Counted from the stretch's first letter, positions 2,562 to 55,921 are shown. The stretch: DNA of 64,000 nucleotides from Trichoplax sp. H2 (GCA_003344405.1 NOWV01000124.1:1-64000), one strand, 5' to 3'. The notes: a model not told the origin generated them from the sequence alone. Numbers and translations are program-made.

Positions 2562-2606
2562 NNNNNNNNNNNNNNNNNNNNCCATCCTATTTTAGTGATG
2601 AAGTCT

Positions 2607-5362: not shown

Positions 5363-6439
5363 TTATTTAGCAAGCATATGAATATTCAGTTTGGAAGTAT
5401 GGATTATGTTTGCTGAATTGTTGCGGCTGGATTGTTTGGATGAAGACACAGTAATATGACTTGGTTTAGGAGTAATAGAATTTTCGTTTGATGATATATT
5501 AACTCTTCGTAATAGTTGTAAAGCTTTATTTCGAATATTGCAATCGAACTTAAAATAGATGAAGGGATTTAGTACGGTGATACTTGTTGTTGCTGGATAG
5601 GAGAAGAACGCTAAAAGGAATGATATCGTGCTTTGTTCACGTAGTTTCAATAGTGATGCTTTTGTTACAGCTACTCCAAACACAGTTGCAAAAAATGGCC
5701 AAGTAGTCAGAATATAGCACAGAGTTATACTTATCAGCATGCGAATAAATTTTTTCTTTTTAAAAAGATGTTCTGAATCTTGCTGTAGCGTTTGTCCTGG
5801 TTGTAAATAACTTTGCTGATGTTTGATAATTTGCCAATAAATAAGGACAATAATAATTGAAGGAATAATATAGAGGATAATATCAAAAATGATAAAATAA
5901 ATAGATAGAATAGTATTCATTTGGGCAAATTCACACATATAATTATCAGCTTTATGACTTCTAACAATGAGTAATAAGGGAAAATTAACTATCGATGATA
6001 GAATCCAAACTAGAATCTCGCTTGTAACGATTACTTTCAATTTTTGAATTCGATAGAAAGCCTGCATTGGTTTAACGATCACAAAATATCTATCAATTGC
6101 AATTAAACACAAATTCATCATAGATATTCCGTAAGAATTCAGAGTAATAAAAAATACTATTCTACACATAAGTATACTTGAACTGTAGTTAAGAAAATAT
6201 CCCGCAATTTGTATGTATGCACAAATTGTGGTAATGGAAGAAATTATGTCAGACACTACTGATACCAGCATCAAGCGATATGTTATTTTATTAAAATATT
6301 TATCTGAGATGAAAATATACAACAAAAATATATTAGCTATAACACCTATCACAGATAACGGAATTGCTGAAACGGATGCATAAGAGTATAAGGTAGCATA
6401 AAATTTACTTAGGGTTAGATTCGGGTTTGATTGATTCAT
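5363..6439 (-). CDS. Intronless class A (rhodopsin-like) 7TM GPCR, 358 aa (cluster gene 1)
   Basis: Seven hydrophobic segments. TM1 GVIAN, TM2 SD, TM3 C...IAIDRY, TM4 W, ECL2 Cys (MCE), TM5 YIIP, TM6 TWP, TM7 NPFIY. N-terminal N-glycosylation sequons NQS and NLT. Confidence 0.93.
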   Translation of the reverse strand: MNQSNPNLTLSKFYATLYSYASVSAIPLSVIGVIANIFLLYIFISDKYFNKITYRLMLVSVVSDIISSITTICAYIQIAGYFLNYSSSILMCRIVFFITLNSYGISMMNLCLIAIDRYFVIVKPMQAFYRIQKLKVIVTSEILVWILSSIVNFPLLLIVRSHKADNYMCEFAQMNTILSIYFIIFDIILYIIPSIIIVLIYWQIIKHQQSYLQPGQTLQQDSEHLFKKKKFIRMLISITLCYILTTWPFFATVFGVAVTKASLLKLREQSTISFLLAFFSYPATTSITVLNPFIYFKFDCNIRNKALQLLRRVNISSNENSITPKPSHITVSSSKQSSRNNSANIIHTSKLNIHMLAK

Positions 6440-9400
6440 AATTTATAGAAGTCTGAGAGTATAATGTAAACTCAATTTATATAAATTCTTTTGCCTCGTC
6501 CGATCTTCTTATTATCAAACGGTAAACATAGGCAAGAAAATGCCGTATCTTGATGAATACGTATATTGTACACCAAAGTACGTTTAGTATCTTCAATTAG
6601 GTGATTTATGAGTAGTTATATAGCTAGCTTACTTAAATAAATGCAAATCATTAGTCATGTGAAGTCAACTTATTTAGATCATCTTAAAATGGTGGATATA
6701 ATTAGTAAATATTCTTTACTAAAAAATTTTGCTTGGTCAAATTACTTTGGATTAGGTCTAAAAATACAGTACAGAGTATATAACAACGATCAATGCAATA
6801 CAAGTATCTGTCTAAGGGCGTTATATTCTAATTAGTATGTTAACAATCAGTTAGGCATCTTTTAAATGTTAACCCTACGACCATGTAATCTCTTTAAAGA
6901 ATAAAATAAGATATTATAATTTTAATTCAGCAGCATCGATCTGATGTAGCTATTGGCAATAACAAAGTTATACTTTATGGCCAAAATTCAATGGATTGAA
7001 GACTACCAGTTTACCTATGACAGGAAAGGATTTCTTTAAGGTATTTCGGTACAGACTATCGTATACCATCAACAGTTAGTGGTAAAGAACCTACTTTCGC
7101 TGCAATGCTTTAATATTCCATCACCTCTCAATATTATTGCTGCTGTCGAAAGTGTGCTTTGCAATTAACGATAGTAAAATCCAATAAGATTTACAACAAT
7201 ATAAGGTTTGTTTATCGAGTTTCTCCAGTTTAGAATTTAGTTACGAATGGAACACTAGAGACCTCTTTAGTATTAATTACAATTAATGCTGTTCACAAGA
7301 TTTATTTAAATTGATATGCTTGAAAAGACATAAGAGCAGAAACGATTTCAATTATAATCATAAACAAAGACGAATTTAAAATTTAATCATTTGAATTAGT
7401 CTTGTTTCAGCATATAATAAATTTTTCTGATTGTGTTAGCAAGAATTAGAAGTTATTTATGATAGGATGCAATAAACAACGAGATAAAATTCGTTTACAG
7501 ATTACAGTATTAGATCAATATATTATTACGAAAGATTCAATTAATAATAAATTTTAAAAGAATGACATTCTAAGATATTACCTTTATTTTTTTAGCAAGT
7601 ACTAACCGTAATGATGACAATATTAAGATTTATGCTCTATCGAAATCCTAACTACAAAACACGTCCTTGTAGTCGTAACATGCTGATATCGAAAGCTTAT
7701 CGATTATTGACAATCAATTGCATATGTAAATGTGTTATACCGGAACGAATATTGACAATTGAAAATATTACTCTTAAGCACATTTATAATTTTTATAGTA
7801 GAAATATTAGGATTAGCTGAATCGCTGCTTAGGATATCATATCCTTATTTTCTGATAAGCGATATTTTAGTGATATTTACTGTTCTTGTTTTACAAAATT
7901 TCGATTACTTTGTTAATAAATCAGTTAGAGATGGGCCTTAATTATGGTCTACCTTACCGTTAAGATAGTTGAATAAGTACATTAGTAGCCAATATCGAGA
8001 ACATCCATATTTGTAGTGCTAGGTAAGATAAGTAATATATTAACGTGGATATTATTTGTGATAGTTTATTACATATTTGATGTTGATTTTATTATGTGTA
8101 GATAGTAGTAATATTATTCAACTTCTAGCTATTGATAGTTGAATTAGACAACATATAAGCTTAGATTAAGATGAATAAGGGATTAAAAGAACTTGCTGAT
8201 AGAAAACTATGTAAGGAACATCTCATTTCGAGATGATGTCTCTCCTACTAAGGTATAATAATAATACCGTCGTTGTTTATAAATTAAACGGTTTCTATAT
8301 AAACGGGAACGTTTGAATTGAGTTGTGTGGTAGAAAATTATAGATGTGTCGATGCTTATAAAAGTTCTATCTTTACGGGACTTCGCTGTGTATGTTTAAC
8401 CTTTAGTAAAAAGGTGTTCAAGTCAGTAGTCACTTATAGACTTTTACTCTACACTTCCTCATTGCAGAGTTGCAATTGTGACAGCCTTGTACATTGTATT
8501 GATAGTTCTCATTAAATATGACCATAGCAGTTTACGTCAATGGATAGCTCTTATTAATACTAAGCCTCGTAATTAACATGCTAAGATGGCGGGGATTATA
8601 GTAAACGTTTTTTATTCGCTGACTTCTTTCAATCGCCACTTTTACTTTTAAGATTACTTTAGTAACAGTAATAATTATTGAAGAGAGGTAACTAAAGTTT
8701 AAAGACTCAGCTAACTTTATTATGCATCTAATTCTTGCTGTAATTTAAGAAGTATTCATCAATGCCTTTTATGATTGATTATCATTAACATTTATAGGCG
8801 GCTGAAAGTACCCATAATAGATAGGCAAGTCAATGACATTTGAAATATCATAAGAACACAATGTGGCAGCTATTTAATTTATGCCTTAATTTCGCTGTTT
8901 ACACCCTAAAAGTTTTTAGTATTTAATTATGCCTTTTATAATAATTAGTTACGCGAAAAATTATCTGCTTAGACAGTTTTCTCCTAATATTTAATCCAAG
9001 GAGATTTTTATTTCTTAATAAGTAGATGTGTTTATTATTTTAAAATGTTGATTTTCTTGTGTAATATTTATTTAATGACGTACCCGACGTTAGTTGAGTT
9101 TTCATGCTCGTATATAAAATATCACAGTATGAATAAATCTCTACCGTAGATGAAATGAAAAAGTTTAGAGACATCATTCTAACATGTTCGGAAAAGAATA
9201 ATTGTAATTTCTCCGTCAGCAAAAATATGTAGCAAATATTTAGTACCCTCTGATCCGATCCAATTATTAACTTAGATACTCTTCAATTTTAAAACACAGG
9301 AAACTATTCAGTTGCTTACTGCTGATTTGAACCTATCTCTGTTATTATCATCTAGCTATATTTATACAAGGGAAACCCTTATACTCAAATTCAATTGAAG

Positions 9401-10018
9401 GAGTAGTAAATTCATTAAATGCATCTCATTGCACTGCTAATGTGGCCGTAAAAAAAATAATATTTATCATCATTTTTATGCATGTAACTTACCCTAACAA
9501 TATGTAATTAACAATATCGCGTAGGCTATACAAAAGTGGAATCTTTTTATGTTTTTATTTAATAAGTAATGAATTGGCGTCGCCTTGCGAATAAATAATT
9601 TGTAGATTGAGGAATTTCGCTAAATACTATCAATAAATAACTTTGGTATGCTGACACTATACAGCAGGATTTTAATACAGTAATTAAATCATGCCTCGCG
9701 AATTGAAAGATTATTTTTACATTTTAAGAAATTATTCATTTTTACCTTTTAAAGAGGTTGTTACTTTAAATTAGACGTTCGGAAATAGACAATCCATATC
9801 ATACGGAGCTTTCATCTGTAATATTTTTGAAATATAAATCTACATCTCATCTTTATCATACGCCCTTCTTAACTTGATACCTAAAACATATCTAGAAACT
9901 AAATATTTGCCTTATTGACGCAGCCGCAGAGAATTCTAGTATATTGAACTGTCTCTATAATTTTACTAGTAATATCTATTGCTTATATACTTATAATTNN
10001 NNNNNNNNNNNNNNNNNN

Positions 10019-10142
10019 CATAGAGTCTCTACCACTACAGTCTATAGTTACAGCTACCAAATATCTCTTAGGATAAATATCTACCGTACATTATACTAAA
10101 CATGGCTAACAGTCTACAATCACAATACTAAGTTACATTACA
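10019..10142 (-). mobile_element. LTR family A terminus (truncated by N gap)
   Basis: Reverse complement of about 2607-2730, ending ...GTTACATTACA. Followed by ACATC, which is present once in the empty allele at 9842-9846. Confidence 0.8.
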
Positions 10143-11859
10143 ACATCTTATCTTTATCATACGCCCTTCTTAACTTGATACCTGAAACATAACTAGAAAC
10201 TAAATATTTGCCTTATTGACGCAGCCGCAGAGAATTCTAGTATATTGAACTGTCTCTATAATTTTACTAGTAATATCTATTGCTTATATACTTATAATTA
10301 TTTTCTCCAATCAATTTCATTAAAGCGTCTTTCATGCCAGAAATCAAATAGCATTATTCTATGCAATGATCTTGATTACAGTTATTTAAGTTTATTAACC
10401 CAAAATTTCAAATTGCCTGCCAGGTTTTACTTTGATTACAGTTCGATAACAGTAGCAATTGGAAGTAAGATATTTATCATTAACGTGATAGCAATTTATT
10501 ATATAATGTTAAGTATTCTATTTAATGAAGATGTTCTGCAAATAAAGAGTTCTGCTCTACTATTAAAATAAAAATTGATTCACGGTTGCTCGTACGCAAG
10601 AAAATATGATTACTTAAACATACTAATGAACACGAGTCGTATGCAGGTAAATGGCATTAAAAATTTTGATATGCAGTATATCGATGATAAGCTTTCATTT
10701 TATTCAGAAGAAAAAAAATTTTACTTCGTTATCTGAATGTTATCCATTTAACTAGTAAAAATGCTTCTTTCATTATGAGTAAAGAAAAATGATAAGAGAT
10801 CATTCTTAAATCAAACTATCTTAAACTAATTTGCATTGACAATCATTTCATAAGAAACAAAGATGACTGTAGTAGTTTCAGTCAATTATAGCAGTAATTG
10901 AAGTACGGTAGCATTAAGATGTAGAATAGTCTATTATACTTGTAAGGTAATTTCATGATTGATGATGATGAATCGGTGTACTTACACTATTCTTGCTATG
11001 TGTGCATAAGATTACAATAGTCGGCTATATTAGGTGATGTTTTTGTGTAATGCCTTAATATAACTATTAGATAATAGGAAATTGTTATCGTGGAAACGAA
11101 GTCGATTGTCCGGTTTATCTTGGCTACTTAGGACTGTTTTTAAGAGGGAATAAAAATGAATTCTTCTTTTGTCAAGCCTTCTATTAATAAACGGATACAT
11201 TTTAAGATTAAATACGTTGTTTGCCTAATCTTACGTCACGTTTGAGATTTGCTTAATTTTAATAACTCAGATTTTGAGTTAGACGATTGCTAACCTGAGG
11301 GGTTGTGAAACCAAGAACTACAATGACTGTACATTATTTTAGAACTTGCTTTGTCTGTCAACATTGATGCATATTGTCTAATAAAATAACTAGAAATTAT
11401 TCCCTTGTCACGGAGTGATGTCCGTGAAGCTATATTGATTTTGTTATTAATTAATTAATTATTTACCAGCATTAATTAATTACCTTACGAAAGAAGTATA
11501 CTTATTCTAGTAGAATTGTATTGTTCGCAGTGTTACTTAAATAGTGATAAGATGAAAACTGCGACACCCCTACTTCATTATTATAGCTTCAAAGCCTATT
11601 TAACATAAGAAGATAAATGATGCTACGAAACTCGTTAATTGTTAATTATATTCGAGAAACGATATCTTTCATTTAATGTCAGCATGAAATTTGATCGCAG
11701 TAATATTGGATATTGGATAAAATGACTAGCAGCGATAATACATGTATATACAAACAAGTGCTGCATTTTTATAAATGATTTAAGTACTTTATTGCGGGAT
11801 TTTGAAATTAGCTTTAAGCAGATCTGAAAACAGGAAATGNNNNNNNNNNNNNNNNNNNN

Positions 11860-12414
11860 GATATCTGCACTATCACGAGCACTTTTGCTCTACTAGCAGA
11901 CTACACAAAGACTTAAACGCCTCGTATTTTACGTTAAACACTAAGTTGGACAATTCTTCTTTATTTCACGATATACTGCATTTATATACTATTCCTCAAT
12001 AGTTCATGAGTCATAGTTAATACAATTAACATTAGAATCATTTACTGAATTAGATATTAATTTTAGCTACTGCTCTCTTAATGCAGACAACAGTATTTAC
12101 GAACATAGACATGTAATAACTAATACAGAATAGTCAGATTACGATATGTCCTATCACGGAACATTTCCATGATAATTTACAGTCTATCATAAGTAAATTA
12201 CAATCACAATGATTCGAACTGTAAGCAGATGATTTGCATTCCCTATTATAACTATTATAATTTCAGTATGTGTATAAGTGTCACTGTCATAAAAAGTCAG
12301 TGCTATATTAAAATACAGTATATCCAAATTATAAGTTAACTAAATAAGGATAGTCTAACAGAATTATCCTAACATAGTTATTTCTACTGTAATACAGTAT
12401 TTAACACTGTAACA
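11860..12414 (-). mobile_element. LTR family B copy (truncated by N gap)
   Basis: Reverse complement of about 41975-42526, ending ...CACTGTAACA. The flank from 12415 duplicates the empty allele at 11467-11839. Confidence 0.8.
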
Positions 12415-13425
12415 CAGCATTAATTAATTACATTACGAAAGAAGTATACTTATTCTAGTAGAATTGTATCGTTCGCAGTGTTACTTAAATAGTGATGAGA
12501 TGAAAACTGCGACACCTCTACTTCATTATTATAACTTCAAAGCCTATTTAACATAAGAAGATAAATGATGTTACGAAACTCGTTAATTATATTCGAGAAA
12601 CGATATCTTTCATTTAACGTCAGCATGAAATTTGATCGCAGTAATATTGGATATTGAATAAAATGACTAGCAGCGATAATACATGTATATACAAAACAAG
12701 TGCTGCATTTTTACAAATGATTTAAGTACTTTATTGCGGGATTTTGAAATTAGCTTTAAGCAGATCTGAAAACAGGAAATGCACTATTTTTTAAGTTTAA
12801 CATCACCATAATTCTGTATTGCACCTCCGATTTGGGATAAAAAAGACATTTCCTCAATCTCACCTCCTTGAGATTTAAGTTTATTCTGGGATTGCTTATA
12901 GTAACAAATCATTTTTAAAATAATCGAGATAAAAAAAGTACCTCCATATTACGAAGGAATTTGACAGTAAATGATTAATCAATTAAAGATTGATATGGTC
13001 TTTTATGTAACCTAAAAGCAGCAGTTGAATTTTTTTTATACAAGTAAATTCATTATTCAGAAATAGATGCATCTGATCTTAAATAATTAATATGGCAGTA
13101 GCGAATGATACGCATATTAAATGTGCGTTATTGCTAAGCTTGCATAAAATCTTTTGTTTAAACCTTAAAAGCAAGCTGACAGTAACTTTAGCTGTAATCG
13201 CAGCATTTTTAATAAATTTAGTATTTAATCTCCATTTTTTTCGCATAAGTATAGCTTAATTGCCTTATTACTGTATTTGGTTGGTCATGCTGATGTACTG
13301 ATAATAACGCTAAAAAGACCTCAGGTAATTAAATTATTACATATTAATTGGTATTTTGTAGAATATCACGTAGCGCACTTTGTTAGTTTTACATTATTTA
13401 ACTGCGTATGAAATTGAAAGCTGTA

Positions 13426-14034
13426 TGTAACTATAAGTAAAAGTGTACATGCAAGGTAACTGTATGCAAAGTGACATAGTATTGTGATTGAAGACTATTA
13501 GCCATGTTTAGTATGATGTACGTTTAGTATCTTTTCTATATTTGTCTTATTATATATTTAGTAGCCCAAAATTATAGACTGTAGGGATGGATTCTATGCT
13601 AGAGTACGGATGACTATATACAGTAAGGTGTTACTAAGCTACTAATAAGGTTAGAAGTAAAAATAGAATTGTAAATTATATATTAGGATATGCTTGGTTC
13701 ATAGTACTTTGAGTCGTAGGAATATAATGTCTATGAAAATACTGTAATCATTTCTATATTGGATTAATGATGGTTCGCTGTAAAATATTGCGACTAATAA
13801 TAAGCTGAACATGTATAAAATATGATAGAATGCTGCTATACTGATTGTAGCTGCAAAGGCTACGGAGAGTATTAAAGCAGGAGACATTAGATTCTCTGAT
13901 TGTTCTTTCTAGAAGTCTTTCGATAGTTGTATTCGTCTAGAGTAGAGCCGTATGTAGCTAGTCTTTATATTAGATCTAATAAAACTTCTAATTTTTTAGA
14001 ACTTTGGAATTTTCGTTGGTCAGATTTTATCACA
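13426..14034 (+). mobile_element. Solo LTR-like element, diverged family A (609 bp)
   Basis: TGTAAC...TATCACA with perfect 5-bp TSD CTGTA (13421-13425, 14035-14039). Alignable to 2607-3156 by eye. Confidence 0.8.
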
Positions 14035-16041: not shown

Positions 16042-17865
16042 GAATTGATTCATCAAAAATACTTCTACCATCAAAGAAGCCTTAAATCATTCGTCAGTGT
16101 ATAGCAACATAAGGAATTGTTGAGTTAATATATGTGATAATTCTGATTGGTAATTCAAATCTTTATTTAGTTCAACGCTAGGCTCATACTAATGAAATGT
16201 TAACATACTTTGTTTTCAAGATAAACAATAAAATTACGAAGGCAGTAATTGAAGATATCAAGTTCCATTCGACATTACATCATTTTTTCCGCTCTAGTAT
16301 TTACTATTAATATTAAACAGATTCTATAGATCCTTAAGGGAATTGTAAACGAAGTTATTCGGTTTCGGTAGAGGATTTTAGAAATATCGTTTCTTAGAGT
16401 CTATACTGAGAAAGAGATAGTATACAATGCTATAGATCTCCGGATTCAGGATAGCTTTAGAAACTAGAGAATTATCTTTTATACTCTACTTGTTTACATC
16501 GCGAGGATCGTAAACAACAACAATCGTAACGGATCATAATTCTAGAATATGGTTTTGTTACTTAACTAAACTTGCCTAATCTAAACTAATTTAGATTACC
16601 CTAGATAAGTAACAATGACTGAGAAATGCACTTTCAGAATCTTCTAACTATATCTTTATTCTCGAAAATGCAAGTCTAATTTAATATTCAAAATCAATCA
16701 TTTAAATAGCTATTCTAGCCATAAAACCGGTTTACGATGTGTGATATATTTCGACCAATAAGACTTCGAGAATGCATTAAATTATTCCTAGTTTAATCCA
16801 GTGAATTTGTAATATTACTATAGATTAACTTTATGTTTGCCCTAGCTTATAATAAACAGGATTTATATTGAATTTGCCATTGACAATTCATATACCATAT
16901 TTAGTATAATTTAACCTGTATTAGGAACAGGTTTGTATCGGCTATATTAAGTCATCAAATAATTCATGCACATATCCAAATTAATAACTATCTTAACGTG
17001 ATACATATACATGTCTAAATTAAGTAAGTTATCATTCATCACGGTAGATTCACTACCGTGACAGGTTTCTATATAGCAGTGAAACCTATACGCTTTACTA
17101 TAGTATTCGAAGTCAACTTGTTTATCTTACCTTAATATGAGTACTTATTTATCACAATTAAAGTCTCGCTTCATAAACAACACTAAATTTAACAAAGGAG
17201 TAAATATGAGACCATATTAACTCTATTGCATAAACAACTACAAATTGCATAACCCGCATGCGATCTTTCATTTGCAAGATGGAAGGCTAGCGAACATATC
17301 TCCAAGTCTAGTAATACTAAGCTACTTCTTTACAGGGAATAAAGTTAAAAATTTTAAATTAGCTCATGAATAGATAATTTTAAAATATTTGTAGAAACTA
17401 TCCTTCTTGAAAAATATGAAAGGAAATTTTATCTAGTATTTGTCAATTTCTCAATACGAAATATAACTACATGCAATTATTGGAGCACTATTATAAAATA
17501 CTGATATGCCGTGTTATGAATGAATTAAATTTTGTTACCAATATATTAATTAAGAGTAAGTAGAGTTAGAATAATAGACCAAAATCTGTTGCATTATGAA
17601 GCTGCAAAATTTTAGTTTCGTTTATTACAAATATAGAGTAATGTACTAGAATGCTTAGCCCTTCATCAGGTGCTGAATCTGATCTTAAAAGCAAGTTTTG
17701 GATTTCATGTAATAGCTCGGTTATAATCTGCAAGGAAAGCAAGTGAATATTTACGAGGCAAAAATACAGAGAGAAGTTATTCCAAATTAGAAATATTTAA
17801 AAGTTAATAAAATTAAAGCGATCATTGCCTTTTAAGAGTAATTCACCTAACTTAATGCCTTGATT

Positions 17866-18956
17866 TTATAATTCAGAATTTTTGCCTAGATCACTACTAG
17901 AATTATATTCCAATTTATGAGCAAAGCTAAAGACGGTAGAATTATTATGACTTGGTATCTTTGATGCTGTAGATAGACTTGCTTGGAGAGCAAAATTTGA
18001 TGCGATTTCTTGGGAATACATAAGTACAATAGCTATTGCTCTGGTTCGTATATTAGGGTCAAATCTAAAGTAAACAAATGGGTTAAGAATTGTAAGGCTT
18101 GTTGTTACTGAATATGAAAAGAAAGCTAGTAAGAATAATATTATGCTTTGATTTCGTAATTTCAGTAATGAAGATTGGGTGATAGCAATTCCCAAAATCG
18201 TTGCAAAATATAGCCAAGTAATTGTGATATAGTTTAGAGCAATTCTAATCAGAGTATTGATGAATTTCCTCTTCTTAAGTTGGCGTTCGTTTTACTGACT
18301 AGATTGACAGGCTCCGGGTTGAACGTAACATTTTTGATGAAGTACTATTCTCCAGTAGGTAATTTCAATCGTAATTGATGATATTATGTAAAGAATTACA
18401 TCATAAATGACAAAATAAATTGATAAAGGAACATTTACTTCTGCAAATTCGCATGTAATATTGTCAGCCTGATGGATGCGGAGGATGATTAATAAGGGAA
18501 AATTTACCATTATTGATAAGATCCAAATACCTATTTCACTAACCACCACAAATAAGTTCCTGTGAATGCGATAAATACTTATCTAAGGTCTGACGATAAC
18601 AAAATATCGATCGATGGCAATCAAACTCAAATTCATTATCGATATTCTATAGGAAGTCATAGTGATATAAAAAATGCTTCTGCACATGATGATGCCAGAG
18701 TGCACGTCTAAAGTATACCCAGCAATTTGACTATAAGCATAGATCGATGTAATAGATGAAATGATGTCGCTATAGACAAAAGTTAGTATCAAGCGATAAG
18801 TTGTTTTGTGAAAGCATTTATCGGTAGTAAAATATACAGCAAAAATATGTTTGCTATTAAGCCGATAACAGGTAGTGGGATTGCAGCGATGTGGGCATAT
18901 GAATAGAGAGCTGAATAAAATTGATTGTGAGTTTAATTTGCATGTGAATGATTCAT
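17866..18956 (-). pseudogene. Class A GPCR pseudogene (cluster gene 2; closest to gene 1)
   Basis: ATG at 18956 (MNHSHAN*THNQFYSALYSY...IGLIANIFLLYI). Stop at codon 8, a 1-bp frameshift near 18830, and in-frame stops at 18583-18585 and 18292-18294. DRY and NPFVY are retained. Confidence 0.9.
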
Positions 18957-21067
18957 GATTCTAAGGTGAAGTTATAACAACAGTAAGAATATAATGAAAA
19001 ATCAAAAAAACGTTGAGAAATTATCACTGTATTATATATTGATTAGTATATTATATCTGTAATTAATGAGTTGATATACGTTGTGATTGTCTGTTAAGGT
19101 ATATTTTGGGCCGTGAAATATCTTGACTAGATGTAGATTAATTTCTTAAAGAAACTGTTAACTTTACTGTAGATGTTAGCAAAAGGTCTAAACGACATAA
19201 TGAGTTAGTGTACTAACTTTGGCTATTTTCCTACATAAAACTCTAATAACTGAAAATACCGATACAATGTGTGGCAGAAAGACAAGTTTGACCTCCGTTA
19301 CTGACTAAGATAATGCCTAAAAGTTCGCTAGTAAGTGTGTGGAATATAAAAAAGATCGTAAAAGACGATTCGAAAACGTAATGAATGTTAAAATATATCT
19401 AGTGAGTGCTTTTAGTTCAATAAATGAACATGCATATGTATTACCTATTGATAAGACGATTAATTACTTTGCAAATGAATGTGCAGCTGATCTCAGGATA
19501 AATGCTAAAGTATTAAGTTGTGGACTTCTGGTCAGATAGTGTATGTAAGATGCAACATCAGCTTGAATATAGATATTGTCTTTCGCTTTCTGCTTTATCT
19601 GCAGCGAAAGATAGATAAGCAGGTATCTTATAATTCCTAAAATCGTAATCACAAAATAAACAGTTCCTGTTTATGACGCAATAATAGGAAAGTGTAATAG
19701 TCCTAGCTTTATACTGGTAATTAAAGCTTAAATTGTATAGTGTTATATTGGTATCAAATTCAACTAAAAGCTAATGCACTGTAATGGCAATACAAATATT
19801 AGAAAGTTATAATATTCTATACTGAATCCTGTTACTGTCTGTAACACACATTATTGTACGTAATTACATAGATAATTCGAAGGATTGTGTCTTAATAACA
19901 TAAAATCGATATCAATTTGAGCCGCTATGGATTTAAACCTCCTTGTTGTCAGAGTCTTCTAGATTGATATAAGAGAGATCGCCAAAATTAATTTTATAGT
20001 CACCGTAGGTATTGCTAGCATTTGCATTAACTCATGTCATAAACTCATAGTGTTACATTTCGTCATTATAATGCGATGTTTGTTGCATATTACTATTAGA
20101 CACATAGTTTTCTAAATCCGGCGATATCCTATTAAATATGCTGCCCATTATAATTATCAATACTGAAGAAATTCATAATAATGGCAAGTACAACGCTTTG
20201 TTCAGATTAGAGTTTGTAAATTTGATTCGAGCATTCTTATACAGATGTCGTCTATACCTAGTATAAATATATCTGGTAAGACTGATAATAATTTACATCG
20301 CTAACGGTGCTTTATGGGTGTTTTAAAGTAATGCTTGAGAAGATATTGCAATCCAACAACGTAAATATCTTAGAATCTGCTTTTTACAGCTGATTTATGC
20401 ATATCCTAATCTTGTCAAATTATAACTCGCTATGACTTAGGTAAATCTGAAATGTTGTAATTTAGACTTAAATTAGTAGTTGGCTTGTTAACGACCATTT
20501 ATACCATTTAATGATGTTTTTAATATAAGTAGAGTAGCATCCAAAGAAATATTTATTTATGATCGGCAGCTATAGAATCAAAAGTTAAATTCTTGCTGAT
20601 TAAGTATTGAAATGTAATATGATATGTAATAATATTGCAGCTGGTTTTGGATAACTGAATACGAATCTCAATATTTGATAATATGTAATTCTTAAGATAC
20701 GTCAATTTAAGAATTGCATTGAACTTGGTATAAAAGAGCTAGCAGATGATTTAATGAGGATTCCAAGCTATTTAGGAGCTATATCGATCAGTAAGACTCT
20801 GCACATTAATTTTGTTAGTGGCCTATCCACATCTTTCAAATCGATATTAAAATATAAGTAAACGTAGTGAAGCAGCCCATGTAACAGTGAAGATATGTAA
20901 AACCATGCAGTATTAGATATTAATAGAAGATTAATTATGTTTAAATGGATTGATTGCCATGATTTTGGACTATTCCTTAAATTATCTTTGTGGTCATAAC
21001 AACTCATGACAATACAGAATAATGTGACTAATAACTGATATCAATTGNNNNNNNNNNNNNNNNNNNN

Positions 21068-21268
21068 GATATGTCCTATCACGGAACATTTCCATGATAA
21101 TTTACAGTCTACCATAAGTAAATTACAATCACAATGATTGGAACTGTAAGTAGATGATTTGCATTCCCTATTATAACCATTAATTTCAGTATGTGTATAA
21201 GTGTCACTGTCACAAAATGTCAGTGCTATATTAAAACATAGTATATCCAAATTAGAAGTTAACTAAAT
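21068..21268 (-). mobile_element. LTR family B internal fragment next to N gap
   Basis: Matches about 12144-12345 and the reverse complement of about 42044-42245. The terminus is missing. The flank 21268-21491 duplicates 20824-21047. Confidence 0.7.
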
Positions 21269-22216: not shown

Positions 22217-23278
22217 TTATACCGATTTGGGTAATCTATGATTGCTTACAATTATTGGTGATGAGATTGACGGTTTAGAAGTACTTTTAATATGGAGGTG
22301 AATTATTGCCGAATTCTTGTTTTTACCCGTAAAACCGACGCGTTGCCAAATAATTGCTGATCTTTTTCGAATATTCACATCAAACTTAAAGTAAATAAAA
22401 GGACTGACAATGGTAATACTCGTTGTCACCGAGTATGAAAAGAAAGCCAGCAAAAATTGGAATACACTTCGATTTCTTAATTCCAATAATTCTTCTCTTG
22501 TAAAGGCAAAGCCAACCAATGTTGCAAAATATGGCCATGTAGTAAATACATAAAACAGTGCTATACTTTTTAACATTTTAACGAATTTTCTATTTTTTAC
22601 GTTTCTTATACTGTAATTTACCGAATATCCAGGTCGCACATAATTCTTTTGATAGTTTATAATGAGACCGTATGTAATGATAATTACGCTGCATGGGATA
22701 ACATACATAATTAAGGTAAATACGATAAAATAAACTGACAGAAGTGGTATAACTTCGCCTTGTTCACACATAAACGTATCTTCTTGGTGGATTTGCGTTA
22801 CCACTAGAGTAGGAATGGTGAATATTATCGAACTAGTCCAGATTAATATCTCAACAGATGTTATAATTCGAATCTTATAATTTCGATAAAACTGCACAAA
22901 GGGTTTAACTATAGCAAAATAACGTTCAATACCAATTAAACATAAATTCATCATGGATATTCCATAGGATGTTAACGTGATAAAAAAAACGCTTCTGCAA
23001 AGTGTAACTGCTACATGGTAATCTTTCGTATAGCTTGCAATATGAGCGAAGCCAAGTATGGAAGTTATAGTGGAAATACTATCGGAAGTTGAAGAAACCA
23101 TAATCAAGTAATAAGTAGTCTTATGAAAGAATTTATCGGTAACCAATAAATATAATAAAAATAAATTAGCTGACAATCCGATAATTCCCAAGCAAGTAGC
23201 AGCAGCGGATGAGTAGACATAGATTGTTGAGTAAAATTCTTGAAGGCTATTATTATGATCGGAAGTATTAACTTGCAT
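22217..23278 (-). CDS. Intronless class A GPCR, 353 aa (cluster gene 3)
   Basis: 7TM pattern with GLSAN, SD, ERY, MCE, YVIP, TWP and SPFIY. Confidence 0.93.
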   Translation of the reverse strand: MQVNTSDHNNSLQEFYSTIYVYSSAAATCLGIIGLSANLFLLYLLVTDKFFHKTTYYLIMVSSTSDSISTITSILGFAHIASYTKDYHVAVTLCRSVFFITLTSYGISMMNLCLIGIERYFAIVKPFVQFYRNYKIRIITSVEILIWTSSIIFTIPTLVVTQIHQEDTFMCEQGEVIPLLSVYFIVFTLIMYVIPCSVIIITYGLIINYQKNYVRPGYSVNYSIRNVKNRKFVKMLKSIALFYVFTTWPYFATLVGFAFTREELLELRNRSVFQFLLAFFSYSVTTSITIVSPFIYFKFDVNIRKRSAIIWQRVGFTGKNKNSAIIHLHIKSTSKPSISSPIIVSNHRLPKSV

Positions 23279-24087: not shown

Positions 24088-24356
24088 ATAAGTTAGGTCG
24101 ACTAAACTATTGCAATTTTGATTGATTGCTAATATTGCTCGTTAGTAGTTAATTTCTGTTGTCTTTTACGAGTGCATCGCGTTGCTCAAACTACTCGAAT
24201 TAAAGTAATAATAGTCCGACGTTGTCAATTTTAACTGAGTGACCACAGTCTAGAAGGGAAGTTCTAGGCCGAAACTAAAATGAATGTTGACTGTAGCAAC
24301 TTAGAACAGCAGAATACTTTACTTTATCCTTTATCTAGAGAGTAGTCCGTTATACA
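24088..24356 (+). repeat. Interspersed repeat E, copy 1 (inverted relative to 44964-45235)
   Basis: Shared blocks such as TCTAGAAGGGA(A/T)GTTCTAGGCCGAAACTAAAAT, AATATTGCTCGTTAGTAGTT and GCATCGCGTTGCTC. The copies are diverged. Confidence 0.7.
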
Positions 24357-28246: not shown

Positions 28247-29251
28247 CTACGATCTCGGTAATTCTTCAACCTGAATTACTATAGATGAGGTTTCTTGCAA
28301 TCCTAAGCTCAGGCGTTTTATTACTTTCTTTGCACTCTTACGGACATTAGCATCGAATTTAAAATAAATAAAAGGATTCAGAATTGTTATACTTGTTGTA
28401 GTAGAGAATGAAAAGAATGCTAATAAAAACGCGGCCAAACTTCTGTTTCTAACTGCAATAAATGAATCTCGAGTGATTGCAAATCCGAATAAGGTCGCAA
28501 AATAAGGCCAGGTAGTTAATATGTATGATAGATTAATGCTTATTAGTGATCTGATAAATTTTCGCTTTTGAATTTTTCCTTCAGTGCTCTCACTCCCGAT
28601 ACACTGACCAGGCTGAGTATAATTTTTTTGATGAACTACAATTTGCCAGTAGATTAGTGCAATTATTGATGACGGTATAACATAGATAATTACAATAAAG
28701 GCAATTAGATAAGAGGCAATCCAATTAGTTATGGTATCATGTTCACACATCATAGTGTTTTCTCGCTGAACTTTCATAAATATTAGCTTTGGAGATGTTA
28801 CTGTAAGCGATAGCAGCCATATCATAATCTCAGCGCTAATTAAAATACGTTTTTTGTAAATGCGATAAAATCTTGTCAAAGGTCTAACGATTGCGAAATA
28901 TCGATCAGTTGCAATTAAACATAAGTTCATCATAGAGATCCCATAAGATGATTGAGCTACAAAGAAAACACCTTTACACAGTACTGATCCTAAGATATAA
29001 TCGAGAGTAAATCCAGCGACATGAGTATAAACAATGATAGAAACTATGGTTGAGATAATATCTGAGATAACAGATGCAAGAATTAAGTAATACGTAACCT
29101 TACGGAAAAAATTATCCGTCAGTAAAATATAGAATAAGAATAGATTAGCGATCAATCCTGTCACCGCCAATGGAAGAGCTGCTAACGAAGCATAAGTATA
29201 AACTTTTGAATAAAATTCTTTCAAGCTATTATTTTCAACGGAAATATTCAT
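28247..29251 (-). CDS. Intronless class A GPCR, 334 aa (cluster gene 4)
   Basis: 7TM pattern with GLIAN, SD, DRY, MCE, YVIP, TWP and NPFIY. Confidence 0.93.
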   Translation of the reverse strand: MNISVENNSLKEFYSKVYTYASLAALPLAVTGLIANLFLFYILLTDNFFRKVTYYLILASVISDIISTIVSIIVYTHVAGFTLDYILGSVLCKGVFFVAQSSYGISMMNLCLIATDRYFAIVRPLTRFYRIYKKRILISAEIMIWLLSLTVTSPKLIFMKVQRENTMMCEHDTITNWIASYLIAFIVIIYVIPSSIIALIYWQIVVHQKNYTQPGQCIGSESTEGKIQKRKFIRSLISINLSYILTTWPYFATLFGFAITRDSFIAVRNRSLAAFLLAFFSFSTTTSITILNPFIYFKFDANVRKSAKKVIKRLSLGLQETSSIVIQVEELPRS

Positions 29252-31834: not shown

Positions 31835-32824
31835 TTAAAAACTTCTTACTGAGAATGCTAATTTTCTTGTATCTGTAATATTGCATATGCCTTTAAGAAG
31901 TTGCGTAGATCTATTCCTGATATTGTTATCAAATTTAAGATATATAAACGGGCTTATAATAGAGATACTGCTAGTGACAAAGACAGAAAAAAATGTGAGC
32001 AAATATTCTGAGAAATTACCAGTGACTATCTGTAAATGAGATTTTTTAGTTATAACCATTCCTAGAATTATTGCAAAGAGCGGCCAAGAAATGAAGACAT
32101 AGGATAATGAAATACTTATCAACATTTTTATATATTTTTTTTCTTCGAGTGATATCGATAAGCTTGATTGACTAATACATCTATAGGTTGTATATAATTT
32201 CTTTGATGATTAATAATTCGAAGATAAATGGCAATAATGCTAAATGAAGGTAAAATGTACAGGAAGATAACAATAGCAGCTATATATGTACGAATTGCTT
32301 GTGTAAAAGCTGGAAAGTCGCAAATCATAGGATGGGCTTTATAAACTATTGCACCGAATAAAACTGGAGCTGTTACTGAAATAGAAGCAAACCAAATGGA
32401 AACTTCACAAGTAATTACTATTACCCTCTTATTCGTACGGTAAAAATGTGAGAATGGTTTTAGGATCACAAAATAACGATCTACACCTATCAAACAGAGT
32501 CATAATCGATATACCATAAGAAGTGTACATGATAAAGATTGAGTATCTGCACATTAACGTTCCTCCATGGTAGTTAAGAGCATGGCCTGCTATTTGAATG
32601 TAACCGCCAATTGCCGCGGATGTTGATACAATATTAGATATAACAGATACACTAACTAAATAATACGTTGTTTGATGGAAATATTTGTCTGTTGTTAACA
32701 AATATATTATTAATATATTTGTAATTAACCCAATAAATGAAACGGCTATTGATGCAATGGACGCTTTACTATGCAAAACAGTAAAATAGTCGTTTTCGTG
32801 GCCAGAATCATTAGAATTGTTCAT
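31835..32824 (-). pseudogene. Class A GPCR with two frameshifts (cluster gene 5)
   Basis: Three ORF pieces join into a full 7TM receptor. There is a 2-bp loss at about 32495 (CTG[TG]TTTGATAGGTGTAGATCGT = L-C-L-I-G-V-D-R) and a 1-bp loss in the A8 run at 32135-32142. No other stops. Confidence 0.85.
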
Positions 32825-38967: not shown

Positions 38968-39984
38968 TCAGCGGGCTGAAGACATGACTCTGATATGATG
39001 TAGCCTTCGTTGTCGATTTGATTCTAAACCTAGAAGTTGCTTGCATACTTTCACTGCTCTTTTTCGGATGTTACTATCAAACAGCAGATATGTAAAAGGA
39101 CTAATGATAGTTATACTTGTAGTCAATGATCTTGATAATAGCGACGTAACGTAGGCCACTTTATCAGTAAAACGTAGCTGATAATACGTTTTTTTAGTTA
39201 TAGCATACCCTAAGATAGTAGCAAAGTATGGCCAAGTAAAACAGACGTAAGATATAGCAATACTCATTAGCGCTTTGATGAATCTTTTCTTTTGAGCATC
39301 CTCTTCAATTTGCTCTGCATTATTAGTAGCAGGACTAACGTAATTTTTTCGAAAAATTATTATTTTTACATAAACGGTAACGATAAAAGTCGACGGTATG
39401 ATATATAGCATGATGACAAGAAATATTAAATAGGCAGAAATTATGTTTGTAATGGGTATAAAATCGCATAACCCGTAATCTTTATTTTTGGATTCCATTA
39501 CGAGAATCAAGGGAGCATTAATTATCACTGCAGTTATCCAGATCGATATTTCGACAAATAAAAGGAAATTATTTTTATATAGACGATTAAATTGCGACAC
39601 AGCTTTTACTATATTACAGTATCTGTCGAAAGCAATTAAACATAAATTCATAATTGAAATCGTATATGATGTAGCTGTAATATAAACAGCCGATTGGCAC
39701 ATTATATCGGCTCCATTGTCATCAGTGGTTCGAGCTAGGATGTGACTGTAGCCATATGTCATAGATATGGCTGTTATAATATCAGAAGTAACAGAGATCA
39801 TAATAAGGTAATATGTCGGTTTATGAAAATTTCGATCAGTTATAAAGATATAAAGCACAAAGATATTGCTAATTAGTCCAATGATAGCTAATGGAAGAGC
39901 TATTATGGAAGTAATATCATACAACTGAATGAAGAAATTATCAATATTGGTTTCATTCGAATCATTGATAACGCCATGATTCAT
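38968..39984 (-). CDS. Intronless class A GPCR, 338 aa (cluster gene 6)
   Basis: 7TM pattern with GLISN, SD, DRY, LCD, YIIP, TWP and SPFTY. Confidence 0.93.
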   Translation of the reverse strand: MNHGVINDSNETNIDNFFIQLYDITSIIALPLAIIGLISNIFVLYIFITDRNFHKPTYYLIMISVTSDIITAISMTYGYSHILARTTDDNGADIMCQSAVYITATSYTISIMNLCLIAFDRYCNIVKAVSQFNRLYKNNFLLFVEISIWITAVIINAPLILVMESKNKDYGLCDFIPITNIISAYLIFLVIMLYIIPSTFIVTVYVKIIIFRKNYVSPATNNAEQIEEDAQKKRFIKALMSIAISYVCFTWPYFATILGYAITKKTYYQLRFTDKVAYVTSLLSRSLTTSITIISPFTYLLFDSNIRKRAVKVCKQLLGLESNRQRRLHHIRVMSSAR

Positions 39985-41974: not shown

Positions 41975-42604
41975 TGTTACAGTGTTAAATACTGTATTAC
42001 AGTAGAAATATCTATGCTAAGATAATTCTGTTAGACTATCCTTATTTAGTTAACTTATAATTTGGATATACTGCGTTTTAATATAGCACTGACTTTTTAT
42101 GACAGTGACACTTATACTCATACTGAAATTAATGGTTATAATAGGGAATGCAAATCATCTACTTACAGTTCCAATCATTGTGATTGTAGTTTACTTATGC
42201 TAGATTGTAAATTATCATGGAAATGTTCCGTGATAGGGCATATCGTAATCTGACTATTCTGTATTAGTCATTACATGTCTATGTTTGTAAATACTGTTGT
42301 CTACATTATGGAAGCAGTAGCTATAATTAATATCTAATTCAGTAAATGATTCCAATGTTAATTGTATTAACTATGACTCATGAACTATTGAGGAGTAGTA
42401 TATAAATGCAGTATATCGTGAAATAAAGAGAATTATCCAACTTAGTGTTTAACGTAAAATACGAGGCGTTTAAGTCTTTGTGTAGTCTGCTAGTAGAGTA
42501 AAAGTGTTTGTGATAGTGTAGATATCGTTCCTTGATACGTGGTTCAAGGAATTGACTTATTGATCGTATGTTGCGTTGTCTTGTTGCAAAGCTGTTTTGT
42601 GACA
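41975..42604 (+). mobile_element. Solo LTR-like element, family B (630 bp)
   Basis: TGTTACA...TGTGACA (short terminal inverted repeat) with perfect 5-bp TSD GTACA (41970-41974, 42605-42609). Internal AATAAA. Confidence 0.85.
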
Positions 42605-43511: not shown

Positions 43512-44062
43512 TGTAATGTAACTAGTATTGTGATTGTAGACTGTTAGCCATGTTTAGTATAATGTACGGTAGATATTTATCCTAAGAGATATTTGGTAGC
43601 TATAACTATAGACTGTAGTGGTATAGACTCTATGCTAGAGTACAGATGACTATTTACTGTAAAGTGTTAAGTTACTAATAAGGCTATAGTCAAAAATAGA
43701 ACTGTAAATCATATATTAGGATATGGTTAATTCATTGTACTTTGGCTGGTGCGAATAATGTCTACGTAAGTACTGTAGTCGTATCCATATTGGATTAATG
43801 ATTGTCCGCAGTAGAATTGTGTTACTAAGAATAGTTTAACTATATGTAAAATAAGGTAAAAGGTTGCCATGCGGATTGTAGCTGCGAATGCTACGAAAAG
43901 TATAAAAGCATGCAACTTTAGATTATTCTGTTAGTTCATCGTAGAAGTCTTTAGAAGTAGTATTCGGCTAGAGTAGAGCTGTGTGTAGTTAATCTTTGTA
44001 TAAGATTAAATACAGCCCTTATTTTTCTAAAATTTGGAATCTCGTGATTGGTATATATCACA
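43512..44062 (+). mobile_element. Solo LTR-like element, family A
   Basis: Near-identical to 2607-3156; flanked by 4-bp AATG on both sides. Confidence 0.85.
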
Positions 44063-44963
44063 AATGATAGGCATGATAAGATGTTTTTAGTATCGCATTT
44101 GTGGCATATCGTTAAAGATCATAATGTTATCTAGGCATAACGATACTAATACCTAAAAATAAAGTTTCAGTTCAGAACAATTGTACTGGAGATTATTTTG
44201 ACCGCGCTATAACGAAATCTCACGAAAGGAAATTACTAAAAACAGGCAAAGTAAATGCAAACGAACATACTGTAAATGTCGTCAGATCTTATAGTCACTC
44301 CATTAACTGTATGTACAGTACAGTATGTTGCGCTAACGATAATGATGATTAAAAGTTAATGAGTACTTGTTACGATTTCAGATTTACAATACTACGAATA
44401 ATATGTTCTAGCTTAGATGGTGTAAAAAAACTATTAATTATCACATATCTGCTTATATTAGTTACTGTAAAACATATTCTATAGAGAAGCATAGATTGTA
44501 CTTTGTAAAGCGGATAATAAATGTAATTGATTGGCATAGGTGGAATTTAGCATAGATATATAAGAGAGTAAATTTTAATAATAATTAAAGTGATTTGAAA
44601 CTTTTTAGTTGCTTTGTAAAACAAGCCATTAATCTAAGAAGGACATTTTACGTGACTACCAAAAATGTTTCCTTACTGTTTTATACTGCTGACTGATGTC
44701 TTACAATAGGATAGTGAAGTTAGTGACGGTTATTAGAAGTATTAAATTGTAATAAAACCTTAGAATCGTAATAAAGTGAATTAATTGTTTTAAAATTGTT
44801 GTTGTAACAGTAGTTCTCTACAATGAAACAATATTGATAGCAGTGCGTCCTATATAGTACACTAACATTCATTCCATATTGTAATAAAAGTCTCCCACAA
44901 TAACTGTCTTAGTCTATAGTATTTTCTAAAAGGCTTTTATCACAAGGTTTTAGGAATACTGTA

Positions 44964-47764: not shown

Positions 47765-48766
47765 TTAATCGTAAATCGTCATCATGATTGTGCTGCTTCT
47801 AAAGATATCGATACGTTTACAAATACGATGCGATCTGCTTCTTATATTGCTATCAAATTTAAAACACAAGAAAGGATTGATGACTGTTATACTAGCGCTT
47901 AAACTTACAGAAAAAAATGCCAAAAAGAAAAGTGCAAGATTTTTATCACGAATTTCTCTTAGAGATGTTTGTGTGACGGCGAATCCAAATATTGCAGCAA
48001 AAACAGGCCACGTAATTAAAATGTAGGTTAACGCTATGCTAATTAACATTCTGATAAGTTTCCGCCTTTTAAGTTCTTGTATCTTATGTCTGTCGGTGGC
48101 TTCGCCAGGTTGAATATAATTCCTTTGATGCTTAATAATTCTCCAATATACAATTGCAATTACAGTTGTAGGAATAACATACAGCAACATAACAAAGATA
48201 ATAAAATAGGTCGTAGCAAAAAGATCCATGTCAGGAAAATCGCAAACCACATATCTGTCTCGGTATCCGCTAATAATTAGGAACATTGGAGCACTGGTGG
48301 ATGTCGATATTAACCATATTAAAATTTCCACGATGACAATTAATCGACTTTTGTACGAAAGATAAAATCGAGAAAATGGCTGAACAACAGCAAAATATCG
48401 ATCAATAGCTATTAAACATAAAGTCATGATAGAAATACCATAGGAAGATGAAATAATAAACAGAAAATATTTGCACATTGATGATCCGCTTTGAATGCTA
48501 AGATTCTCATCGACTAATAAGGAGTAACATACAATTGATGTTATCGTCGACGTAATATCAGATACAACCGAGACCAACATTAAGACATAAGTACTTCGAT
48601 GAAAGAATTTATCTGATATAAAAATGTACAGTAGAAGTAAATTAGCAACAAGCCCAATCACTGATAACGGTATAGCTGCAATCACAGAATACCAATAGAT
48701 TTGCGAAAATAAAATCTGATTGTTGTAATTATCAGTATCGTTGCCAAGTTCAATAGAGATATTCAT
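47765..48766 (-). CDS. Intronless class A GPCR, 333 aa (cluster gene 7)
   Basis: 7TM pattern with GLVAN, SD, DRY, VCD, YVIP, TWP and NPFLC. Confidence 0.93.
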   Translation of the reverse strand: MNISIELGNDTDNYNNQILFSQIYWYSVIAAIPLSVIGLVANLLLLYIFISDKFFHRSTYVLMLVSVVSDITSTITSIVCYSLLVDENLSIQSGSSMCKYFLFIISSSYGISIMTLCLIAIDRYFAVVQPFSRFYLSYKSRLIVIVEILIWLISTSTSAPMFLIISGYRDRYVVCDFPDMDLFATTYFIIFVMLLYVIPTTVIAIVYWRIIKHQRNYIQPGEATDRHKIQELKRRKLIRMLISIALTYILITWPVFAAIFGFAVTQTSLREIRDKNLALFFLAFFSVSLSASITVINPFLCFKFDSNIRSRSHRICKRIDIFRSSTIMMTIYD

Positions 48767-54989: not shown

Positions 54990-55921
54990 CAGCCCTCTAA
55001 AAACTGATCGTTAGTATGGCGTATATATAGACATCAAAATACAAAAATATGAACGGATTAATAATAGCCATAAAGTCTATTAAATATATTTCTAATACTG
55101 ATGCCCTAAAGTAAATTTACGTAGGATTAAATAGTTGAGCTAATAATTTCTGCAATACTTACAAAATGACCATGGTGGTGAGAAATAAAAGCGTCACCAG
55201 AATATAGCAGATAGAAATGAAACTAAAGCTCGGATTAATTTGTTCAAAAATTGATGTTGTTGTCTAACTGATAAAATTAGCTCAGATTTAACATAATTTC
55301 TTTGATGAAAGATGATTCGCCAGGAAAGAAATAAAAGCAAGCACGACGGTATTACCTAGCAAATAATCGTTAGGAAATTGTTATAAACTGAAACTGATGT
55401 ATTGAATTCAGAATAATCACAAAATGGGTTAAACTCATCTGAATACGTAATGTGACCCCATTCTGGCGATACTGCTAGAAACGAAGCCAGCCAAATAAAC
55501 ACTTCGCAAATGGCAATTAACTTCTTTTATACAGCCTAAGACTTGAGCGATAAGCCTTAACAATTATGAAATAACGATCAATGCTAATTAAAGCTTAATT
55601 CATAATTTACACGACGCATAGTAAATAGTTAGAATTCGAAAAGTCTACAAAATACTGAGATATTCGTTGACGGGACAGCATTTGCAGGTGCTATCAGGTA
55701 GCAAATGATAGCAACACTATTTGATATAATGTTAGATGTAACGGCCATCAGCATCAAATAATAGGTCTATTTATGAAAGTAAGTATAAGTTACAAAAATA
55801 TGTAATAACACTAAATTAGCAACCAATCCGATGCCCGGTTTATATGAAGCTACAATAGCCGTTACAGTCTAACTGTTGCAATATTCTAGAAGCAGGTTCT
55901 AAAATATTAAAACATTGCCAT
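54990..55921 (-). pseudogene. Heavily decayed class A GPCR pseudogene (cluster gene 8), not in ORF track
   Basis: Manual translation gives colinear fragments GIGLVANLVLLHIFVTYTYFHK*TYYLMLMAVTSNII, IMN*ALISIDRYFIIVK, WRIIFHQRNYV and AIINPFIFLYFD. The 3' boundary is approximate. Confidence 0.85.

Follow-up and report, generated by a model that had tools for sequence, protein, structure and literature searches.

A tandem array of eight class A G protein-coupled receptor copies, five intact and three decayed, in the placozoan Trichoplax sp. H2

Placozoans coordinate feeding and movement without neurons, and the ligands of their ~900 G protein-coupled receptors (GPCRs) are actively studied. An array of eight receptor copies lies in a 64,000-nucleotide stretch of Trichoplax sp. 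H2 DNA (GCA_003344405.1, NOWV01000124.1:1-64000; hereafter, the window). An earlier interpretation made from the DNA alone (the sequence-only reading) had described positions 5363 to 55921 as an olfactory-receptor-like array of intronless orphan GPCR paralogs undergoing birth-and-death evolution in a possible placozoan host. The host assignment agreed with the best named protein matches, which came from Trichoplax adhaerens and Trichoplax sp. H2. We favor the reading that these tandemly arrayed class A GPCRs are members of a placozoan-restricted family, the ligands of which are secreted placozoan peptides in paracrine use rather than environmental odorants, and we give this reading a probability of about one half.

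An exact count under the standard code found five open reading frames (ORFs) of at least 200 amino acids in the window, all on the minus strand. A tblastn search with the five intact proteins matched eight minus-strand loci (copies A to H), with both strands otherwise free of copies, and a looser tblastn search of the window (E up to 5) gave no further locus below E 0.66. The starts of successive copies were separated by 12517, 4322, 5973, 3573, 7160, 8782, and ~7155 bases (3.6-12.5 kb). Thus, the ORF list and tblastn bore out in every countable respect the earlier description of eight co-oriented paralogs, five intact and three decayed, spaced 3.5-12.5 kb apart. Stop-codon reassignment was rejected because all five long ORFs read through without interruption when the standard code is used.

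The intact copies are five single ORFs of 333-358 amino acids. Copy A (5363..6439) encodes an intact class A GPCR of 358 amino acids with canonical DRY and NPxxY motifs (PF00001, E 2.6e-26). Copy C (22217..23278; 353 amino acids) has ERY for DRY and SPxxY for NPxxY, and is identical to the protein P0002 from the window's contig; its sister D (28247..29251; 334 amino acids), the copy chosen for structural modeling, is identical to P0001. Copy F (38968..39984; 338 amino acids) carries DRYC and SPxxY and has a 65% identical relative, P0033, while copy G (47765..48766; 333 amino acids), with NPxxC (Y7.53 changed to C), forms its own deep branch and is identical to P0175 from the window's contig. 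The other three of the eight copies are pseudogenes. Copy B (17911..18956), the sister of A at 57% identity, contains three in-frame stops and one frameshift and has replaced P5.50 with S and P6.50 with L. Copy E (31874..32824) contains two frameshifts and no in-frame stop, with N for D2.50. Copy H (55024..55921) is an old pseudogene with five stops and four frameshifts that is 25-33% identical to the other copies and has kept DRYF and NPFIF; its frameshift-aware alignment spans 55024-55832, the ATG assigned in the sequence-only reading lies at 55921, and tblastn traces reach 54901.

The start Met-Asn-x-Ser/Thr is conserved, with N2 present in at least 90% of 22 aligned family members, which argues that the ORFs are complete coding regions without an upstream coding exon. 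Introns may be present in the untranslated regions (UTRs) of the receptor genes. TTTTCAG was observed 6 bases upstream of the ATG of D (29252-29275) and CAG/TAG shortly upstream of A, B, and G, and these may be acceptor sites of 5'UTR introns. A search for a shared upstream motif found nothing common, as the best 8-mer occurred in three of seven upstream regions compared with control maxima of 3-6. In the protein collection, A is represented only by a 252-amino-acid form (P0015, from the window's contig) that starts at an internal Met; the deposited model of A is probably truncated. The clusters of C, D, and G hold one member each, with no protein of at least 90% identity recorded from a second source; the B-to-E part of the locus is nevertheless present in DNA under a second organism label. 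The other Trichoplax annotation probably has no models for A, C, D, and G.

The membership of these copies in class A was consistent across profile and fold. All five intact copies matched 7tm_1 (PF00001) at 79-99 bits (E 4.6e-22 to 3.8e-28), for which the gathering score is 30.5 bits. The AlphaFold2 model of D, obtained with a 22-sequence alignment (pLDDT 84.5, pTM 0.80), showed seven helices and helix 8, with a short β-hairpin in extracellular loop (ECL) 2 at 159-161/169-171. A Foldseek search with this model gave at least 500 matches in the PDB at E<=0.001, the best 45 rows of which were all GPCRs. The microswitch motifs of class A receptors are N1.50, D2.50, D/ERY, CWxP, NPxxY, and the disulfide-forming cysteines C3.25 and ECL2 Cys. 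Numbered from Ballesteros-Weinstein anchors, N1.50, C3.25, R3.50, Y3.51, W4.50, the ECL2 Cys, and P7.50 were kept in all eight copies, and D2.50 in six (N in E and H). D3.49 was changed to E in C, N7.49 to S in C, E, and F, and Y7.53 to C in G and to F in H. Departures from the microswitches were therefore found in three of the five intact copies, namely C (ERY, S7.49), F (S7.49), and G (C7.53). The CWxP motif was non-canonical in all eight copies, in which T or S at 6.48 is followed by W at 6.49. The description of the genes as class A GPCRs in single ORFs, lying in tandem on one strand and having short N-termini, with three of eight being pseudogenes, is supported.

The phyletic spread of the family was assessed using a 22-member profile against 1.84 billion representatives, which gave 15,073 matches at E<=1e-3, 2,276 at 1e-10, and 70 at 1e-30. 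Scores of 190-455 bits were reached by about 50 representatives, after which the scores slid into the class A continuum. Among 30 representatives looked up, 17 were from Trichoplax, one was from the annelid Owenia, and 12 were without a name (Logan or ENA). The first named non-placozoan protein, Owenia P0100, scored 108 bits versus at least 190 bits within the family. As far as the named matches show (17 of 18 are Trichoplax), the family appears to be placozoan-restricted. Within it, the best-hit names of H2 proteins comprised at least 17 types (substance-K, NPY1, galanin-2, prokineticin-2, apelin, PAR2, CXCR6, SSTR4, CCHamide-1, neuromedin-K, tachykinin-like, GPR183, muscarinic M2, 5-HT1F, 5-HT5B, TAAR1, and rhodopsin), and this scatter is evidence against orthology to any bilaterian receptor family. 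A lineage-specific family, as had been proposed, that is not orthologous to any bilaterian receptor family was thus supported, with all the looked-up named matches of at least 190 bits belonging to Trichoplax. The deposited H2 names for this one placozoan-specific family mislead anyone mining the records.

Among 66 core sequences of the family, [ST]WP was found in transmembrane helix (TM) 6 of 53, Y..PG in intracellular loop (ICL) 3 of 43, and FD in helix 8 of 48. The alignment placed the W of the TM6 [T/S]-W-P one residue later than in CWxP. The hallmarks of the family are [T/S]-W-P instead of CWxP, NYxxPG in ICL3, and FD in helix 8. Two word-indexed protein searches, each scoring 8000 candidates, returned 26 and 23 matches, numbers that are not a genome-wide census. 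The protein P0038 (RDD39711.1, 'Neuromedin-K receptor', Trichoplax sp. H2) is encoded on the same contig outside the window, and the family therefore continues there, as part of the array or as a second cluster. Small clusters were found on other contigs (RDD45986/45987, RDD37252/37254, RDD42310/42313/42324, and three genes on a 345-kb contig).

The array is old. Nucleotide similarity between copies was 64-69% and ended at the borders of the coding sequences. Synonymous sites were saturated among the intact copies, with a proportion of synonymous differences (pS) of 0.67-0.77 in all 10 pairs, nonsynonymous divergence (dN) of 0.39-0.58, and synonymous divergence (dS) infinite or >1.6 in all 10 pairs; because dS was saturated, dN/dS among the paralogs was dropped. 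In trees, the large one of which was built with a quick LG+G4 method and SH-aLRT support only, A and B as well as C and D were sister pairs that are also physical neighbors, and these four grouped with TRIADDRAFT_60080 and one unnamed protein. F paired with P0033, E grouped with a gene on another H2 contig, G stood alone, and H grouped with P0038 and TRIADDRAFT_60078. The array is thus an old heterogeneous cluster that spans four or more deep subclades, among which genes of other contigs are interspersed.

The lesions of the pseudogenes were located by frameshift-aware alignment. In B, the three stops lie at 18935, 18585, and 18294, and the reading frame shifts at 18827; E has frameshifts at 32500 and 32172, and H the five stops and four frameshifts given above. 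DNA contigs of the public runs X3 and X5, which carry different organism labels, covered 17000-33500 at 95-99+% identity, a stretch outside which H lies. The X3 contig spanned B without gaps, and its sole two differences (18012 and 18013) were away from the lesions. The X5 contig also spanned B without gaps and had one difference, the position of which was not placed; X5 thus has the frameshift of B in common with the window, together with two or all three of the stops. For E, the X3 contig was gapless across the frameshift at 32172. At 32495, the other assemblies carried two additional bases (28.8 of 28.8 depth in X5 and 12.1 of 28.3 in X3), which by our arithmetic removes the first E frameshift of the window, and at 32597, one base was absent in X3 and X5, which would break their own frame. 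E is therefore dead in all the assemblies compared (the window, X3, and X5) and is still gathering strain-specific indels. As the X3 and X5 contigs are independent, the B and E lesions are not attributed to assembly error. Contigs of the runs X17 and X18, which are guessed to be RNA, matched B, portions of C and E, and several intergenic segments; none matched D, spliced joints were absent, and no conclusion on expression or silence is drawn from them.

Losses are thus visible at three ages, with no recent birth. The birth-and-death evolution proposed for the array held with respect to deaths, of which there are three, while ongoing births were contradicted by the saturated pS, the similarity confined to coding sequences, and the presence of at least four deep subclades. 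The proposal is further weakened by pseudogene B being common to DNA runs under two organism labels. The array would have arisen from ancient local duplications followed by the loss of three members. Of these losses, that of H would be old, that of B would predate the divergence of the two sequenced Trichoplax lineages, and that of E would be the latest.

The five intact copies were compared by region using helix ranges and lists of pocket and G-protein-contact positions that were taken as canonical rather than computed. The mean pairwise identity was 0.224 in the extracellular loops, 0.447 in the outer helix halves, 0.596 in the inner halves, and 0.351 in the intracellular loops, which corresponded to 0.383 for the extracellular side and 0.528 for the intracellular side (permutation p=0.0003). 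The same outer/inner gradient was seen across the family of 22 members. The G-protein-face positions had an identity of 0.727. Canonical pocket positions (0.457) did not exceed the remaining TM positions of the outer half (0.450) in variability. Y5.38 and Y6.44 of the pocket were fixed in all eight copies, Y3.36 and F6.52 were the same in seven, and positions 3.33, 4.60, 5.43, 6.58, and 7.39 varied. The divergence of extracellular regions and the conservation of intracellular motifs noted in the sequence-only reading are thus real as a gradient, without diversification of the pocket above its TM neighbors.

Each of the five intact genes is predicted to encode a seven-helix receptor with a short, N-glycosylated N-terminus that would bind an extracellular ligand via its divergent loops and outer helix halves and signal via a family-wide intracellular face (DRY, Y5.58, NYxxPG, NPxxY, and helix 8). 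The shared inner face (0.727 at G-protein positions versus 0.457 in the pocket) suggests that the intact copies probably couple to the same class of G protein. Our best guess is that the ligands are peptides in paracrine use, to which the evidence leans mildly. This ligand class, like the coupling and the cell types, is inferred, whereas gene structure, family membership, lesions, antiquity, and phyletic restriction are shown. A sequence search found 730 PDB sequences at E<=0.001, the top match being the PrRP receptor (1.9e-23), followed by BRS3, GPR183, orexin, CCK-A, NK3, NPFF2, SSTR, NPY2, and galanin receptors, with 5-HT, beta-2 adrenergic, and rhodopsin chains close behind. The leaning to peptides rests on the best of these matches (PrRP, BRS3, orexin, CCK, NK3, NPFF, and SSTR; E 1.9e-23 to 1e-18), and on the best 45 Foldseek rows, which comprised 44 receptors of peptides or small proteins and one 5-HT1D chain (TMq 0.67-0.74, identity 15-22%). 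It also rests on the predicted ECL2 hairpin and on the loops being the most variable part of the receptors. Passages of a single-cell study of placozoans further report that each peptidergic cell type has its own combination of expressed placozoan-specific GPCRs (Najle et al. 2023, PMC10580291).

Several points weigh against this reading. The resemblance to peptide receptors is weak (15-22% identity), and little separates their scores from those of 5-HT, beta-2 adrenergic, rhodopsin, and GPR183 chains. Small-molecule (monoamine) ligands occur in placozoan expansions, as reported in passages of a preprint for five receptors of other clades (Yanez-Guerra et al. 2025, bioRxiv 10.1101/2025.04.18.649542). 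The changed microswitches of three intact copies (C and F with S7.49, G with C7.53) may have altered or abolished signaling, and with W at 6.48 missing across the family, activation may take a route other than the textbook one.

A chemosensory repertoire of the olfactory receptor (OR) kind, as the sequence-only reading had it, is less likely. Such receptors would respond to environmental chemicals such as food and biofilm cues, with diversified pockets and restricted or mutually exclusive expression in sensory cells. The tandem, one-strand layout of single ORFs with short N-termini and three of eight copies as pseudogenes fits this proposal, as does the lineage specificity of the family; passages of PMC10580291 leave undecided which peptidergic cells are sensory, which also leaves room for it. 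The layout came with no recent duplicates and no sign of fast turnover, features that speak against a chemosensory repertoire. In its favor, dN is higher on the outer than on the inner side in all 10 pairs (outer/inner ratio 1.15-2.0). A less conserved outer side is, however, generic for class A receptors and does not single out chemoreceptors, and the pocket, with several positions fixed, shows no variability beyond that of its TM neighbors. Profiles of the nematode chemoreceptor families Srsx, Srx, and Srv scored 16-36 bits. Pfam cut-offs for these families were passed only by F (Srsx 26.5) and G (Srsx 36.1, Srx 30.6), but these scores (26-36 bits) come from related models and lie far below those for 7tm_1 in the same copies (91-99 bits), as was always the case among the intact copies. 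None of the five intact copies matched the OR profile 7tm_4 (PF13853) at E<=0.01, and no OR or trace amine-associated receptor (TAAR) was found among the best 60 PDB sequences or the best 45 Foldseek rows. The label olfactory-receptor-like therefore suits the genomic layout of the array and not its profile, sequence, or fold matches.

A bolder form of the chemosensory proposal, which we consider unlikely, is that the [T/S]-W-P subfamily, lacking the W6.48 toggle, is a placozoan invention for sensing the outside world, with each intact copy expressed in its own small set of secretory cells that are exposed to the surroundings, where it would detect a particular chemical of food or biofilm. If true, it would represent a receptor-per-cell-type chemosensory code in a neuron-less animal, independent of the OR, TAAR, and nematode chemoreceptor systems.

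In aminergic receptors and TAARs, an Asp at 3.32 pairs with the ligand amine, and in opsins, retinal is bound by a lysine at 7.43. Asp at 3.32 was found in none of the eight copies (T, T, T, A, M, T, I, and T in A-H), and neither was Lys at 7.43 (T, T, T, T, S, T, A, and D). The residues at 3.32 speak against endogenous small-molecule ligands (monoamine-like, lipid, or nucleotide), for which the Trichoplax receptors of tryptamine, tyramine, and phenethylamine would be the model and which we regard as quite improbable. Small molecules are favored by the short N-terminus, by top PDB sequence matches that include 5-HT receptors and the oxysterol receptor GPR183, and by the five of 56 tested Trichoplax GPCRs that, according to passages of the preprint (bioRxiv 10.1101/2025.04.18.649542), answer monoamines. 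The same passages place these deorphanized receptors in melatonin-related and GPR21/52-like clades without the DRY aspartate, whereas the array family keeps D/E-R-Y, and melatonin receptors were not among the best 60 PDB matches. Least probable is that the array is mostly an evolutionary remnant, with 'intact' copies under relaxed constraint or heading to loss and of little present function: three of eight copies are already dead, C, F, and G depart from the microswitches, and among the inter-assembly differences listed for C (at least six), three change an amino acid and three are synonymous, which is not usable as a test, but five ORFs of 333-358 amino acids have stayed open despite saturated synonymous sites, as is unexpected without purifying selection. 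In addition, dN (0.39-0.58) falls well short of saturation, identity at the G-protein face is 0.73, and F has a full-length, 65% identical relative elsewhere.

The array provides a compact test set of five intact paralogs with shared inner and divergent outer faces and three dated pseudogenes, and its [T/S]WP/NYxxPG/FD signature is usable to pull the subfamily from other placozoan genomes. The interest of the locus would rise if one copy were expressed per exposed cell type or if the ligands were environmental.

Between the receptor genes, two dispersed repeat families of ~550 bp were observed, with copies 77-95% alike. The first was found at 2607-3157, 43512-44063, and 13465-14012, and the second at 11860-12414, 41975-42526, and 21068-21269. 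The bin containing 21068-21269 had a contig word depth of ~19,000 compared with ~20 elsewhere, which indicates a high-copy element. Neither terminal inverted repeats at the ends of the ~550-bp repeats nor a coding match within them was found. Four 20-N gaps (2562, 9999, 11840, and 21048) lie within 2384-3333, 9842-10299, 11467-12781, and 20824-21491, respectively, and each is followed by a dispersed-repeat piece, beyond which the sequence that precedes the gap recurs at 95-98% identity. The X3 and X5 DNA contigs link 20837 straight to 21282. Rather than true duplications, the gap-flanking copies seem to be artefacts of scaffolding or insertion polymorphisms where repeats have inserted. Just beyond the array, an exon-sized ORF on the plus strand (57662-57931) encodes a Death domain (PF00531, E 1.9e-12) and belongs to an unrelated gene. 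On the minus strand, 60751-60897 gave a weak, sub-threshold match to the alpha/beta hydrolase fold at its C-terminal end (PF00561, E 5e-4) and is possibly the last exon of a multi-exon gene. These were the only domain matches among 16 non-GPCR ORFs of at least 75 amino acids (Death domain) and 28 more ORFs in 56-63 kb (weak hydrolase match).

Compared with known systems, the array resembles the OR and TAAR clusters of vertebrates in its tandem, co-oriented, intronless coding regions, short N-termini, many pseudogenes, and divergent outer versus conserved inner half. It differs from them in having no 7tm_4 match, no D3.32, and no OR or TAAR neighbors, and in its ancient duplicates and a pocket that is not hypervariable; the resemblance is one of layout, not of descent. 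The bilaterian beta/gamma rhodopsin neuropeptide receptors (PrRP, orexin, CCK, NPFF, tachykinin, somatostatin, and galanin) provided the best sequence and fold matches and share with the array DRY, NPxxY, the C3.25-ECL2 cysteine pair, and the ECL2 hairpin. They are, however, separated from it by 15-22% identity, the lack of orthology, and [T/S]WP for CWxP, and aminergic chains score almost equally. The neuropeptide GPCR expansions of the cnidarian Nematostella (PMC11087051) are likewise a lineage-specific class A radiation outside Bilateria and are reported there to bind the animal's own peptides; they belong to another phylum and another family.

The closest parallel is with the placozoan-specific expansions of rhodopsin-like GPCRs (PMC10580291, PMC6067683), with which, going by passages of both papers, the array shares the animal group, the Pfam domain, the absence of orthologs elsewhere, and the many paralogs. 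Their text passages do not describe the array, its three pseudogenes, or the [T/S]WP/NYxxPG/FD signature, although supplementary Table S4 may list the genes. A literature search found no title on this array; Table S4 of PMC10580291 and the supplements of bioRxiv 10.1101/2025.04.18.649542, which lay outside that search, may list its genes. As quoted in passages of these sources, 420 GPCR genes were cited for T. adhaerens (Krishnan et al. 2014, PMC4302439), GPCRs were duplicated independently in Hoilungia and Trichoplax (Eitel et al. 2018, PMC6067683), and 923 largely placozoan-specific GPCRs were counted in Trichoplax sp. H2 (PMC10580291). The passages of PMC10580291 also report a median of 25 expressed GPCRs per peptidergic cell type and that placozoan-specific GPCRs are found mainly in peptidergic secretory cells, where they are modeled as candidate peptide receptors with deorphanization still needed. 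In the part of its Table S5 consulted, TrispH2_001267 and 001268 (consecutive numbers, HG10, no orthology assigned) peak in different peptidergic types. Lineage-specific placozoan GPCR expansions, their clustering, and their cell-type-specific expression are thus already in print, and beside them, the locus is a real and well-delimited but ordinary member of a published kind of expansion, which leaves the published picture unchanged.

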